From the IMG/VR virus record IMGVR_UViG_2563366941_000004: a stretch of DNA of 4,260 nucleotides; one strand, given 5' to 3'. The position numbers were made by a program, and so were the translations under genes. Numbering within the stretch: the first letter of the stretch is position 1; each line of letters begins with the position of its first letter. Below the pieces are notes generated by a model that did no database searches, was not told the origin of the DNA, and was given only the letters and a program-made list of their open reading frames with translations. Source of the DNA: a virus. Lineage: Duplodnaviria > Heunggongvirae > Uroviricota > Caudoviricetes. Positions 116 to 4,260 of the stretch are shown piece after piece.

Positions 116-331
116 TTACTCTCCCCGTGCAGCCTTACGACGGTCCTCTCTGATTTTGAAATACAGGTTAGTCAGATATGTCAGCAGCCCAAACAGCAGA
201 CTCCCCAGCACGCCTATTGCCGCCCACTGAGACGGGGAAACCCTGTCCAGCAACTGCAGGAACCAGTAGCCCGATCCCACCGCTGACGTGGTGTATGACA
301 CACCTGTTGTGATTTTTTCCATCTGGTACAT
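116..331 (-). CDS. S: Class II pinholin, phage 21 S21-like / EssQ-like (71 aa, dual-start Met1/Met4)
   Basis: The ORF-track protein ends ...[51 protein letters not shown], which I recognise as very close to the S21 pinholin family. Likely start is ATG 331..329 (MYQMEK...) with GGAGA about 6 nt upstream; a second in-frame Met at 322..320 reproduces the S21 71/68 dual-start layout. Stop TAA at 118..116. The 97-aa version starting at 409 is an over-extension. Confidence 0.85.
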
Positions 332-366: not shown

Positions 367-397
367 AAAAAAAGCCACCAGTTAAGTACTGATGGCT
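367..397 (-). terminator. Putative rho-independent terminator between nanS-p and the pinholin gene
   Basis: Minus-strand RNA would form GCCAUCAG / CUGGUGGC (8 bp including one G.U) with a 7-nt loop, followed by UUUUUUU (plus-strand A-run 367-373). Judged by eye, no folding energy computed. Confidence 0.5.
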
Positions 398-481
398 CTG
401 ATAACTCATGCAGGCATCTCAGACGACCCACTGACACTACCGGTGAGTTTAACGATACCTTCCATTTGGCTGGCTCACTTT

Positions 482-2335
482 TTATGATGATGCCGGTGCA
501 TTTATCTCCAGCACCAGACTTTCTATCTCAACGCCATACGCTGCATTTTTGGTAATATCCGTCAGCGTCAGCGCATTCAGCCCCAGTGTCAGACTGTCTT
601 TTATGACCTGGAATGCCGGGCCAGCCACTCCATTCAGTTTCGGAGTAACCGTGGCACTGCCGGCGGTGAACACCAGCTCCAGCGTCTGCCAGTCGTTACT
701 GTAATTCCCGAACTCGCCCAACTTTGTGTTTCCTGCTTTCTTGTGATGCATCAGATTCAGTTTGCCGTCTGTGGTCTGGGTGAAGAACGACATCAGGAAC
801 GGGTTACCAGTCCCGGTCATCGCCACGACGTCAGGTAACGCTACATCGGTATACAGATAAATTCCCAGACCGAACTGATTGTTGGTCAGTGCGCCTGACA
901 GTCGAAACTTACAGCTCAGTCTGCCACCCCGTGTCAGCAGGGAGACTGCGTCATCCACCGGGCGCGTCAGGGACCAGGCTTTATTGCTCTGCTTGGTGAT
1001 CTTAAATACACCATCTGACAACTGAATTCCGCCATTCTTAATGCTCCAGCCCTGCGCAGCAGCGTCTCCGGCTGTCGGCAACAGGGAGATTGTGCGTATG
1101 GATGCATCTTCAGACGGCCCCGATGGCGTGTCGCCGCCGGGCGAGAGTTTGATTTCCGGTGCCTTACCACTAATGAAGGCTAAGGTGCGACCGGCTACGT
1201 TCAGAATAGCAGTTGCCATACGATCGGGAATAATGCCACGACGCGCCCATGAGCTGAAATGCGTCGGGCGATTTGATGATACCCAGTTTTTGTTCGTTCG
1301 GGATGCCGAACCGTAATAACCAGACCCGACAATATCAGGATCTTCTGACGGGTTGTTTGTCGGTGTATTAACTCCGCTACCATCGGTCATAAAGGGAACA
1401 AAATAAATCTGCTGGGATTCTTTACCTTTATATGCACCATATACCACTTCATATTGCGTACCGTGTTCTTGTTTCCACGCGTATGTCGTGTCGCCACAAA
1501 TCCAGGGGACTGATGCCGGACTTCCACCGTGACACTGCGCTGCCAGCCCGGCAAGGTCAGCACGGAACTGCTGTACCATTGCAAGAAATGCTGCTGGCTG
1601 CTGGGCGTAACTGGCATTCGTCATATCGAATTCCCCCTGCATCCAGCATATCGCCAGCAAAACGTTTTTCGGGTTTTTCTGCAATGCTGCCTTCGTGCGG
1701 AAAAGCAGATCCTGATATAACGGCTTACCCACTCCCCAGCGAGCCGAATCCTGACTGGCTCCCGTGGACTCGCTGAATGTCCCCTCCGTGCCCTGGGTGA
1801 ATGCCGAACCACCACGACAGCATGGTACCAGCAGGATCCCCGCATTATTAGGGATATACGGAAGCAGTTTTTTGGCAATATGTAAGCCCTGTCCGACACA
1901 GCCGTACTGCCCTTTGCTCAGGTCAGCCCGGGGATGGTTAATCGTACTCATATCCTGAACATCATGCAGACAATGGTCAGCAGGAATGATGTCGTTAAAT
2001 ACGCATACTTCACCACCGGGAGTCACTGTGTTACGACGGGCCAGTTGCTTAATGCGCGGATGGGGCGCATCGTATGAATCCGGAAGCGGAAGCCCTTCAC
2101 CGTAAGCCATGGCATTGGATTGCCCGGCCAGTACGATGACGTAGTACCACTCCGGCTCAGTTGCACCACTGACGACCACATCACCTTCTGCTGCAATCGC
2201 CTGCATCAGGGTATAAGGGGTTATGGCCACCGGACTACCAAACGGCTGCCAGCCCTCCTTCAGTTTTTGTGTCAGTCGTTTCGCAAGGTCTGACGGCGAT
2301 GCCGCCCTGACCACGTCATAGTGTTTAAATGCCAT
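482..2335 (-). CDS. nanS-p: Prophage NanS-p family 9-O-acetyl-sialate esterase (N-terminal DUF1737-like extension + SASA/SGNH esterase core + ~230-aa C-terminal domain)
   Basis: 617-aa ORF, ATG 2335..2333 with GGGAGG SD upstream, stop TAA at 484..482. Contains VLAGQSNAMAYGEG (GQSN motif, putative catalytic Ser73) and collinear blocks I recall from E. coli NanS/YjhS (LPLPD..APHPRIKQLAR, VPCCRGGSAFT, CWMQGEFD, GDTT, FSSWARRGIIPDR). Position between tRNAs and holin matches the nanS-p locus of Stx and related prophages. Confidence 0.85.
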   Translation of the reverse strand: MAFKHYDVVRAASPSDLAKRLTQKLKEGWQPFGSPVAITPYTLMQAIAAEGDVVVSGATEPEWYYVIVLAGQSNAMAYGEGLPLPDSYDAPHPRIKQLARRNTVTPGGEVCVFNDIIPADHCLHDVQDMSTINHPRADLSKGQYGCVGQGLHIAKKLLPYIPNNAGILLVPCCRGGSAFTQGTEGTFSESTGASQDSARWGVGKPLYQDLLFRTKAALQKNPKNVLLAICWMQGEFDMTNASYAQQPAAFLAMVQQFRADLAGLAAQCHGGSPASVPWICGDTTYAWKQEHGTQYEVVYGAYKGKESQQIYFVPFMTDGSGVNTPTNNPSEDPDIVGSGYYGSASRTNKNWVSSNRPTHFSSWARRGIIPDRMATAILNVAGRTLAFISGKAPEIKLSPGGDTPSGPSEDASIRTISLLPTAGDAAAQGWSIKNGGIQLSDGVFKITKQSNKAWSLTRPVDDAVSLLTRGGRLSCKFRLSGALTNNQFGLGIYLYTDVALPDVVAMTGTGNPFLMSFFTQTTDGKLNLMHHKKAGNTKLGEFGNYSNDWQTLELVFTAGSATVTPKLNGVAGPAFQVIKDSLTLGLNALTLTDITKNAAYGVEIESLVLEINAPASS

Positions 2336-2557: not shown

Positions 2558-2561
2558 GTCC

Positions 2562-2588
2562 ATAAGAAAGCCCCTCCGGAGAGGGGCT
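2562..2588 (-). terminator. Putative rho-independent terminator at the minus-strand end of repeat copy A
   Basis: Perfect inverted repeat AGCCCCTC / GAGGGGCT (2569-2576 / 2581-2588) with a 4-nt loop; on the minus strand it is followed by UUUCUUAU. Confidence 0.5.
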
Positions 2589-2797
2589 AAAGCCGCGTAT
2601 CTGTATCATCATGCACATGGTGCCGGGTGCCTCCCGGTGAGTTCAGCCCGGTGCCACTAAACCCGCGTCATTCTCGTTTTGATAATCAGAGATTATACCG
2701 TCACCAGTCGCCCCTCCGCTCAGGGGGATTCACCATGCGAAATTTTTTTAACAAATGCCCAGTCTGACAGGCAACTGTCAACTTACTGAATTGTGAG
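2568..2797. repeat. Structured repeat unit, copy A (diverged direct repeat of 3055-3265)
   Basis: Shares perfectly conserved blocks with copy B: aagcccctccggagaggggct (2568-2588), catggtgccgggtgcctcccggtga (2616-2640), gcccctccgcNcagggggattcaccatgc (2710-2738, one mismatch), tttaacaaa (2747-2755), ctgaattgtgag (2786-2797). Sequence between blocks is diverged with indels. Confidence 0.8.
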
Positions 2798-2833
2798 CAA
2801 CATAGCATTTAACGGGGAACCTGTTTTCTGCAG

Positions 2834-2861
2834 TAAAAAGGCCCACCGGAGCGGATGGGCC
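2834..2861 (-). terminator. Putative rho-independent terminator just upstream (minus-strand sense) of repeat copy A
   Basis: GGCCCA (2840-2845) pairs with TGGGCC (2856-2861) around a 10-nt loop; on the minus strand it is followed by UUUUU (plus A-run 2835-2839). Confidence 0.45.
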
Positions 2862-3048
2862 TGGAAGGATAGCGGTCATGTGATGCCGGTTTCCCGGTAA
2901 CTCAGCACCGGTATCTGAGTCAACGTTTTCTCTACTGGGTCATTTCCGATACGCCCTGCCTGCTGACAGGCTTTCATCACATCTGAAAATATAGCACCCT
3001 GACTGATACTGTAGTACCTAAGGTTCCAGAAACTGTGATGTATCCGGC

Positions 3049-3075
3049 ACAGAAAAGCCCCTCCGGAGAGGGGCT
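3049..3075 (-). terminator. Putative rho-independent terminator at the minus-strand end of repeat copy B
   Basis: Same AGCCCCTC-CGGA-GAGGGGCT hairpin (3056-3075); on the minus strand it is followed by UUUUCUGUG. Confidence 0.5.
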
Positions 3076-3265
3076 GGAGAGTGGCGCTATGTGCCATTGC
3101 ATGGTGCCGGGTGCCTCCCGGTGAATTCAGTACCAGCACCTGAATCCGCGATTATCCCATATACCTACTCGCTGATTGCCCCTCCGCACAGGGGGATTCA
3201 CCATGCCAGTTTCTTTTAACAAACTCCCCGCAAACCAGACAACAGTCAACCGCCTGAATTGTGAG
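3055..3265. repeat. Structured repeat unit, copy B (diverged direct repeat of 2568-2797)
   Basis: Conserved blocks at 3055-3075, 3100-3124, 3178-3206, 3214-3222 and 3254-3265 match copy A in the same order and orientation. Confidence 0.8.
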
Positions 3266-3271
3266 ACATTT

Positions 3272-3295
3272 AAAAAAAAGCCCGCAAAAGCGAGC
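3272..3295 (-). terminator. Putative rho-independent terminator immediately downstream of the tRNA cluster
   Basis: Minus-strand RNA: GCUCGC-UUUU-GCGGGC (6-bp stem with one U.G) followed by eight U (plus A-run 3272-3279). Starts 16 nt after the 3' end of tRNA-Arg(UCU). Confidence 0.6.
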
Positions 3296-3310
3296 CAGGG
3301 AAAATAAGTG

Positions 3311-3387
3311 TGGCACGTTGTACTGGATTCGAACCAGTGACCGATTGCTTAGAAGGCAATTGCTCTGTCCGGCTGAGCTAACAACGC
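3311..3387 (-). tRNA. tRNA-Arg (anticodon UCU), 77 nt, CCA encoded
   Basis: Manual cloverleaf on the minus strand: acceptor GCGTTGT/ACAACGT (G1.U72), D-arm GCTC-AGCCGGACA-GAGC, anticodon arm ATTGC-CTTCTAA-GCAAT (UCU), T-arm ACTGG-TTCGAAT-CCAGT, discriminator G, CCA. Third position in a trio that resembles the ileZ-argN-argO cluster of phage 933W (recalled). Confidence 0.8.
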
Positions 3388-3400
3388 AGGATACAGATAA

Positions 3401-3477
3401 TGGACCGCCTTCGGGGACCCGAACTCCGCGCAACCAGCTTCGAAGGCTGGCGCTCTTTCCTGATGAGCTAATGGCGG
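3401..3477 (-). tRNA. tRNA-Arg (anticodon UCG as read), 77 nt, CCA encoded; non-canonical features, possibly degenerate
   Basis: Manual fold: D-arm GCTC-ATCAGGAAA-GAGC, anticodon arm CCAGC-CTTCGAA-GCTGG (perfect 5-bp stem, U33, anticodon UCG, A37), T-arm CGGAG-TTCGGGT-CCCCG. Deviations: C1-G72 start, A.A mismatch at 6:67, A.C mismatch at 52:62, G at position 58 where A is near-invariant. Confidence 0.6.
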
Positions 3478-3484
3478 TATGTGA

Positions 3485-3560
3485 TGGTGGCCCTTGCTGG
3501 ATTTGAACCAGCGACCTGGCGATTATGAGTCGCTCGCTCTCACCACTGAGCTAAAGGGCC
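3485..3560 (-). tRNA. tRNA-Ile2 (anticodon CAU, lysidine-type, AUA-decoding; ileX/ileZ-like), 76 nt, CCA encoded
   Basis: Minus strand GGCCCTTTAGCTCAGTGGTGAGAGCGAGCGACTCATAATCGCCAGGTCGCTGGTTCAAATCCAGCAAGGGCCACCA. Perfect 7-bp acceptor stem, anticodon loop CTCATAA, T-loop TTCAAAT. Very close to the E. coli ileX sequence as I recall it, so Ile2 rather than Met is favoured, but the anticodon alone cannot distinguish them. Confidence 0.8.
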
Positions 3561-3569
3561 GGGAGCAGA

Positions 3570-3598
3570 ATAATAATGGTGCGTAATTAATTCTGCAA
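3570..3598 (-). promoter_or_regulatory. Putative sigma70 promoter for the tRNA cluster
   Basis: Minus strand: TTGCAG (3598..3593), 17-nt spacer, TATTAT (3575..3570), then 9 nt to the tRNA-Ile2 5' end at 3560. Motif match by eye only. Confidence 0.4.
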
Positions 3599-3609
3599 TC
3601 TCATCCGTT

Positions 3610-3936
3610 TCAAACGATTAAATCCTGAACTTCCCTGACTGTCTGCTCAAAACGTCCGGTCTCCAGTTCAACGCCAATCGCACGACGCCCGAGCGCCAGT
3701 GCCGCTTTTACCGTTGAACCTGAGCCCATAAAAAAATCTGCAACCAGGTCTCCCGGACGACTGCTTGCGCTGATTATCTGCTGCAGCATTTCTGCCGGTT
3801 TTTCGCACGGATGTTTCCCGGGATAGAACTGCACCGGTTTATGCGTCCAGACATCGGTATACGGCACCTGCGCTGTCACGCCAAAATACCGCCGCAGTCG
3901 GCATTCACAACCACAAGCGTGTTTAACGTACTGCAC
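3610..3936 (-). pseudogene. 5'-truncated beta-class DNA (N6-adenine/N4-cytosine) methyltransferase, C-terminal ~108 codons only
   Basis: Translation carries the C-terminal signature ...KHPCEKPAEMLQQIISASSRPGDLVADFFMGSGSTVKAALALGRRAIGVELE (HP-x-x-KP and FxGSGST AdoMet motif I). No DPPY motif or N-terminal half. The frame is closed by an in-frame TGA at 3945..3943 two codons upstream of the only start, a GTG with no Shine-Dalgarno. Upstream 3946-4039 is AT-rich and not MTase-like. Confidence 0.65.
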
Positions 3937-4039
3937 AGCTTTTCAGACATAAAAAGGCCGCCTGATAGCAGCCTTTTCACATTAAAATTAAGTTTTTCTT
4001 TACTCTGTAGTATGGGAAATTAGCATTCCCTACTGGGTT

Positions 4040-4260
4040 GGTAATGACTCCAACTTATTGATAGTGTTTTATGTTCAGATAATGCCCGATGACTTTGTCA
4101 TGCAGCTCCACCGATTTTGAGAACGACAGCGACTTCCGTCCCAGCCGTGCCAGGTGCTGCCTCAGATTCAGGTTATGCCGCTCAATTCGCTGCGTATATC
4201 GCTTGCTGATTACGTGCAGCTTTCCCTTCAGGCGGGATTCATACAGCGGCCAGCCATCCG
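4040..4260 (-). mobile_element. IS1 insertion sequence, partial (right-end 221 bp; element continues beyond window end)
   Basis: 4040 onward reads GGTAATGACTCCAACTTATTGATAGTGTTTTATGTTCAGATAATGCCCGATGACTTTGTCATGCAGCTCC..., which is the reverse complement of the IS1 right end (terminal inverted repeat plus insB 3' end) as I recall it, continuing to the window edge. Confidence 0.9.
4055..4260 (-). CDS. insB: IS1 transposase InsB, C-terminal part (partial, 5' end outside window)
   Basis: Minus-strand frame ends ...[58 protein letters not shown] with stop TAA at 4057..4055, 16 nt inside the IS1 terminus, matching the InsB C-terminus. Confidence 0.8.

Follow-up and report, generated by a model that had tools for sequence, protein, structure and literature searches.

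In lambdoid (Stx-type) phages, the tRNA module ileZ-argN-argO very probably has a functional sigma-70 promoter of its own, a reading to which we give a probability of about 80%. We analysed a 4,260-nt stretch of DNA, referred to here as the window, that covers the start of the late region of an E. coli lambdoid prophage, with the genes of interest all on the minus strand. On that strand the promoter consists of a -35 hexamer, TTGCAG (3598..3593), recognized from its sequence and conservation, a 17-nt spacer, a -10 hexamer, TATTAT (3575..3570), and nine nucleotides of discriminator and short leader (tctgctccc, 3569..3561) before the 5' end of tRNA-Ile2 at 3560, exactly where a preliminary description of this DNA had placed it. 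The promoter is already known, as it has been noted before for Stx2a phages; what is new here is its conservation footprint, the boundary of the module at -38 and the occurrence of the promoter together with ileZ in 3,052 of 5,426 complete E. coli genomes. That it is active in the present strain we infer from its conservation and from a mapped transcription start in a homologous phage.

The first gene of the operon is tRNA-Ile2 (anticodon CAU, ileZ type; 3560..3485; 72.5 bits against the Rfam tRNA family), followed after 7 nt by tRNA-Arg (UCG) (3477..3401) and after a further 13 nt by tRNA-Arg (UCU) (3387..3311). All three were found by ARAGORN and Rfam and carry RefSeq labels in relatives, among which tRNA complements vary. 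ARAGORN calls the CAU tRNA a tRNA-Met; the identical gene is a tRNA-Ile in RefSeq, and it is 89-92% identical to both host tRNA-Ile(CAU) genes. An intrinsic terminator at 3296..3272, with a 7-bp G+C-rich stem (3296..3279) and a run of eight U residues, ends the operon; it was identified by the terminator scanner and by folding (-11.4 kcal/mol, z -3.4).

Scored against the consensus, the promoter is weak, with three of six matches in the -35 hexamer and five of six in the -10 hexamer, and our promoter scanner did not list it because its threshold is four of six in each. The window contains 48 placements with at least 8 of 12 matches. Such figures lend some weight to the alternative that the hexamers arose by chance, that the tRNAs are only processed from the Q-dependent late transcript, within whose operon they lie downstream of the late promoter pR', and that the block from -38 to -1 travels with the tRNA for another reason, for example as a processing leader. 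The bases that match are the TTG of the -35 hexamer and T1, A2, T3, A5 and T6 of the -10 hexamer, at a spacing of 17 nt. In sigma-70 promoters, the most important positions are the TTG of the -35, T1, A2 and T6 of the -10 and an optimal spacing of 17 nt, and TTGCAG-17-TATTAT combines sigma-70-type hexamers with a spacing inside the 16-18-nt range. A single copy of the core TTG-N20-TATNAT is present in the window, where 0.12 would be expected (22 of 200 shuffled sequences had one or more), and it directly precedes the first gene of the tRNA cluster.

To examine conservation, we compared 134 copies of the tRNA-Ile2 gene and its upstream DNA drawn from complete genomes, phage records and IMG/VR contigs. 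These copies comprised 36 distinct 60-nt upstream sequences, and in their unfiltered alignment TTG and TAT[T/C]AT were invariant across all 36. Column entropies were computed for the 41 in-register sequences among 46 distinct 80-nt upstream stretches, a subset chosen for the hexamers, so that hexamer entropy is biased low. In this subset 13 of the 17 spacer positions and all nine discriminator positions varied, and mean column entropy, with that bias in the first figure, was 0.21 bits in the hexamers, 0.58 in the spacer, 0.69 in the discriminator and 1.30 in the DNA ahead of -38. When every possible 6+17+6 placement over these 80 nt was compared, again within the hexamer-selected subset, the TTGCAG/TATTAT register had the lowest entropy. 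The register TTG-N20-TATNAT-N9-GGCCC was kept in 126 of 136 fetched loci, and variants with single-base indels still had a 16-17-nt spacer, with TTGATT as the -35 hexamer. This conservation is the footprint that a functional promoter would be predicted to leave, in sequences that are related rather than independent. The whole block from -38 to -1 is better conserved than the DNA upstream of it, and the conservation of the hexamers is therefore partly a matter of shared ancestry.

Similarity among the loci ends abruptly at about -38, just upstream of the -35 hexamer, in at least eight upstream contexts. Some of these are diverged 3' ends of a methyltransferase gene, and one is a tR'-like terminator with a T-run that leads straight into the -35; an AraC-like ORF contributes its 3' end to another, and three more are intergenic and unrelated in sequence. 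Because similarity stops there, the segment exchanged between phages starts at the -35 hexamer. In one locus (L016, ~2510-2641) the T-run of the post-Q terminator abuts the tRNA -35, so that pR', tR' and the tRNA promoter lie within ~130 nt; in another (L019, ~10900-11158) the module follows the 3' end of the AraC-like ORF and has TTGATT-17-TATTAT with 10 nt to the tRNA. We also considered a host origin of the promoter and found it unsupported, as the host genes ileX and ileY match over the tRNA body only and their upstream regions are dissimilar.

Experimental evidence is available for a homologous Stx2a phage. In dRNA-seq of strain Sakai, a primary (TEX-enriched) start was detected upstream of the tRNAs, between tR' and stx2AB, in a mostly lysogenic culture, in a study that analyses neither the sequence nor the conservation of the tRNA promoter (Sy, Lan & Tree 2020, PMC7547250). 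We found that the 160-nt interval after tR' in VT2-Sakai (the Stx2a prophage Sp5) contains TTGCAG-17-TATTAT-9-tRNA-Ile2, in a locus 90% identical to window positions 3711..3273. Two weaker promoter candidates, TTGAGC-17-CAGAAT and TTCAGA-18-GATGAT, lie in the same interval; of the three, TTGCAG/TATTAT alone is common to families without other upstream conservation. A search of the literature on ileZ, argN and argO found nothing relevant. The window shares with VT2-Sakai and phage 933W the same promoter and tRNA-Ile2 layout, the three tRNAs, the terminator and a methyltransferase 3' remnant upstream. It differs from them in that STnc100-type sRNAs and an esterase follow the module where the Stx2a phages have stx2AB, in a longer methyltransferase remnant (288 nt compared with ~110 nt) and in an IS1 element 480 nt upstream of the tRNAs; in its closest relatives, unlike in the Stx2a phages, a kinase-phosphatase pair occupies the gap between Q and the module.

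These data argue against hexamers that are there by chance. Conservation of the entire 38-nt block, beyond the hexamers, would suit a travelling leader, but variation within the block spares exactly TTG and TAT-AT, the 16-17-nt spacing survives indels, and RNase P needs no conserved 38-nt leader. The tRNAs are followed by a dedicated terminator, and the primary 5' end in the homologous phage was found in lysogenic culture. We consider chance hexamers very unlikely, and favour a genuine promoter for the tRNA module.

A different objection is that the site might be the phage late promoter pR', at which Q loads, and not a separate tRNA promoter. The site does lie in the late region and point in the late direction, and it has a terminator ~270 nt downstream, which resembles the 258 nt that separate pR' from tR' in Stx phages (PMC7547250). 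However, pR' has been mapped elsewhere. In Sakai it starts at 1,266,203 (PMC7547250), and in EDL933 the available part of the Cappable-seq report gives plus-strand pR' starts at 1354183 and 1354192 for each of its eight conditions (PMC10469882), 420 nt upstream of ileZ; the tables in that part of the report, from which the authors excluded tRNA-associated starts, have no entry near 1,354,57x-1,354,60x. Moreover, relatives have a separate promoter-terminator pair right after Q (L001, 7343-7416; L016; VT2-Sakai, with tR' at ~3949-3978), and the Q gene ahead of the tRNA site may belong to any of four families and lie 0.1-5 kb away, which does not suit a Q-specific loading site. We therefore regard identity with pR' as so improbable as to be nearly negligible. 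The site was also rejected as pR' on position, since it does not have the arrangement of lying directly after Q and then being followed by tR'.

Compared with a lambda-type pR' system, the tRNA promoter is on the same strand and in the same operon, and Q-modified polymerase from pR' would be expected to pass over it. It differs in that pR' lies directly after Q and has its own mapped starts, whereas the tRNA site is independent of Q type and lies 0.1-5 kb downstream. The same part of the EDL933 data contains two other groups of starts near this region: 1354356 and 1354359, seen in some conditions and matching the 5' end of the short form of StxS at +173, and a constitutive antisense start at 1354121 within the 3' end of Q (PMC10469882).

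Bounded by a promoter of their own and by the hairpin terminator at 3296..3279, the three tRNAs constitute an autonomous transcription unit, or 'moron', that sits within the late operon and follows Q, pR' and tR'. Morons are reportedly extra genes with their own promoter and terminator between conserved genes of lambdoid phages, as described by Hendrix, Juhala and colleagues. Here Q and the lysis genes flank the module, which is found behind four Q families and 0.1-5.2 kb from Q, and the same terminator motif is present ~260 nt past the start of ileZ in 65 of 127 loci, as well as in VT2-Sakai, where it stands ahead of stx2A. Like morons, the unit has a flanking promoter and terminator, resides in a foreign operon, occurs in varied contexts with sharp boundaries and has a homologue that is transcribed in lysogenic culture; unlike them, its cargo is a tRNA operon instead of a protein-coding gene, and the unit in the window is known from its sequence.

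We propose that host RNA polymerase would initiate a few nucleotides ahead of where mature tRNA-Ile2 begins and transcribe the three tRNAs as a single precursor of ~290 nt ending at the 3296..3279 terminator, from which RNase P and 3'-processing enzymes would release the tRNAs. A constitutive promoter of host type would give the lysogen tRNAs for rare codons (AUA, AGA/AGG and CGN) without induction, so that a Q-independent supply is possible. The terminator of the tRNA unit would shield the downstream sRNA, esterase and lysis genes from transcription that starts at the tRNA promoter, and terminators in such phages would keep the toxin, esterase and lysis genes insulated as long as Q is inactive. 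Once the lytic cycle is under way, polymerase that starts at pR' and is modified by Q would pass through the module and all later terminators. The tRNA promoter leaves the understanding of late-gene control unchanged. For annotation, thousands of E. coli prophages could be given a promoter feature over the 38 nt ahead of ileZ.

The transcription start is predicted to fall within 3569..3561, which would give a leader of ~1-4 nt ahead of mature tRNA-Ile2. The distance from the -10 hexamer to the mature 5' end is a constant 9 nt in the module (10 nt in one variant). In host ileX a TATAAT lies 10 nt ahead of the mature 5' end, a resemblance indicating that such tight geometry is normal for tRNA-Ile2 genes. 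As in the host promoters rrnB P1 and tyrT, a C/G-rich stretch (consensus CCTGCGCCC, with eight of nine positions G or C) follows the -10. The discriminator of the window, TCTGCTCCC, is less G+C-rich than this family consensus, at six of nine, and the module differs from ileX and ileY in having no upstream sequence similarity to them. Stringently controlled host tRNA and rRNA promoters such as rrnB P1 and tyrT have G+C-rich discriminators, and by analogy the G+C-rich discriminator suggests that the tRNA promoter may be under growth-rate (stringent) control. A more speculative idea, which we think quite doubtful, is that tRNA-Ile2 is made as an almost leaderless precursor that needs little or no cleavage by RNase P, so that the 38-nt promoter and the tRNA would constitute a minimal mobile expression cassette. 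If this is true, more than half of the sequenced E. coli genomes would have acquired such a cassette, its edge sharply defined at -38.

The DNA upstream of the module bears on a further proposal, made in the preliminary description, that this could be a lysis-defective, cryptic prophage. On that proposal Q and pR' would have been lost through IS1 and decay of the methyltransferase gene, the tRNA promoter would be the only remaining drive for the late genes, and the terminators downstream would block it. The upstream neighbours are as that description had them. A 3' remnant of a DNA methyltransferase gene (3936..3610; Pfam N6_N4_Mtase) ends with a stop codon 11 nt ahead of the -35 hexamer, and beyond it, from 4040, is the right end of an IS1 element (4260..4040), recognized from matches to IS1-family transposase genes, with an inverted repeat that begins at 4040 and an element that continues past the end of the window. 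The methyltransferase gene is indeed dead: the ORF at 3610-3936 covers only the C-terminal third of N6_N4_Mtase (profile positions 134-219 of 221), the remnant aligns over 3897..3610 with the C-terminal ~95 codons of the intact enzyme (349 aa) in a related locus (L003), and the N-terminal DPPY motif is absent. The remnant is an annotated pseudogene in relatives and is ancestral to the whole clade; that clade includes the 209 complete genomes in which 80% or more of the window is matched, in many cases with 99.9% identity up to 4039. A shorter remnant is present in VT2-Sakai and 933W, both of which are inducible.

There is no Q gene in the window, as had been stated, but this is uninformative because the window covers only 700 nt upstream of the tRNAs, 221 nt of which are IS1. 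The expectation that Q and the late promoter precede this region was borne out in a survey limited to loci for which 3 kb or more of upstream DNA was available: 71 of these 88 had a Q gene of one of four types 0.1-5.2 kb upstream, on the same strand. In the architecture of the window itself, represented by its closest relatives (L001), the end of Q is 2.1 kb from ileZ, so that the absence of Q from the window carries no weight. The order in these nearest relatives is RusA, Q, a short promoter-terminator pair, a Ser/Thr kinase, a PP2C phosphatase, a hairpin, the methylase remnant and the tRNAs; in a sister architecture it is Q, a 65-aa ORF, an intact methylase and the tRNAs. The kinase and phosphatase, a eukaryote-type Ser/Thr kinase and PP2C pair at 7489-8993 of L001, lie between Q/tR' and the tRNA module and replace the 5' two-thirds of the methyltransferase gene. 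A similar pair is found elsewhere in the L003 prophage, on the opposite strand.

The IS1 copy has its transposase oriented with the late genes and is 92.8% identical to IS1X2 of L003. Relatives that lack it align with the window up to 4039, and it sits 7 nt beyond the position of the PP2C stop codon in relatives. Its junction was unmatched in every collection searched: a 201-nt junction query found no place covered to at least 80% in 5,426 complete E. coli genomes, exact junction strings were absent from GTDB species representatives, IMG/VR and JGI metagenomes, and among the ten contexts retrieved with the exact esterase protein sequence, none had IS1 at the site seen in the window. IS1 can cause adjacent deletions, and if one occurred here, Q and pR' could be gone. 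Some relatives show decay of this kind: in L002 Q is split by IS3, with an IS1 and another IS3 also present, and L131 has no Q call in the usual position. The stretch around Q looks like an insertion hot spot, with independent IS1 and IS3 insertions in L002 and L003.

The unmatched junction, its position 480 nt upstream of the tRNAs and the six minus-strand terminator-like hairpins that separate the end of IS1 from the holin, five of which follow the tRNA promoter, are the points that speak for a cryptic prophage. Against it, Q or an IS-split remnant of Q was found upstream in every inspected relative that lacks the present IS1. If the insertion is simple, Q-modified polymerase should cross the 768-bp element, a behaviour we infer from the properties of lambda Q. 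Inducible VT2-Sakai and 933W have the same methyltransferase remnant, tRNA promoter and post-tRNA terminator, and in the window both the SASA/NanS-p-type esterase (2335..482) and the class II holin (331..116) are intact. The position of Q in relatives, the ancestral remnant, terminators of a kind found in functional phages and intact esterase and holin genes give no indication of a cryptic prophage, and we consider that proposal unlikely. Of the preliminary interpretation, then, the tRNA promoter and the dead methyltransferase gene stand, and the lysis-defective, cryptic state finds no support in the window. The layout is the normal one of Stx-type lambdoid phages, in which many terminators are no sign of decay.

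The three terminators that the preliminary description listed are real (3296..3279, 2862..2839 and 399..371). We found three further terminator-like hairpins on the minus strand, at 3075..3056, at 2588..2569 and, the strong one, at 3941-3987. This last hairpin (3987..3941) lies inside the 100-nt spacer between IS1 and the methyltransferase remnant and in relatives follows the PP2C phosphatase gene (L001). It folds with -21.7 kcal/mol (z -5.8), with a core stem at 3973..3956 and a U run at 3955..3951, and the A-tract before it and U-tract after it make it terminator-like in both directions; the terminator scanner probably overlooked it because A/U pairs extend the stem. Judging from its fold, it would stop un-antiterminated transcription leaving IS1. 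If ordinary read-through from IS1 is halted in this way, the tRNA promoter is the likely source of the tRNAs in a lysogen.

The remaining terminators are the 3' ends of embedded units, the tRNA unit and STnc100/Pas-type sRNA units, that functional Stx phages carry. Rfam identified three members of the STnc100 family, two good and one degenerate, at 3235..3045, 3006..2833 and 2767..2558. The copies score 136 bits, 30 bits (the degenerate one) and 165 bits and have their own terminators at 3075..3056, 2862..2839 and 2588..2569. In a preprint from 2026, STnc100 is connected with the PasD sRNAs of prophages, and Pas copies are said not to be tandem duplicates; the tandem copies in this single prophage contrast with that statement. 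The terminator at 399..371, identified by the scanner and by folding (-17 kcal/mol), lies in the gap of ~150 nt that separates the esterase stop from the holin start (371-481, minus strand). The sRNA genes pasA and pasC have been placed between the sialic acid esterase and the holin (Zhu/Shabalina/Storz preprint).

On the plus strand, a candidate small transcript at 2453-2557 would run antisense to the late operon, between the start of the esterase gene and an STnc100 copy. It has a putative promoter, TTGCGC-18-TATTAT, at 2453-2482 and a strong terminator at 2529-2550 followed by seven T residues, and it matches the OmrA-B family of Rfam weakly (25 bits, E 0.11).
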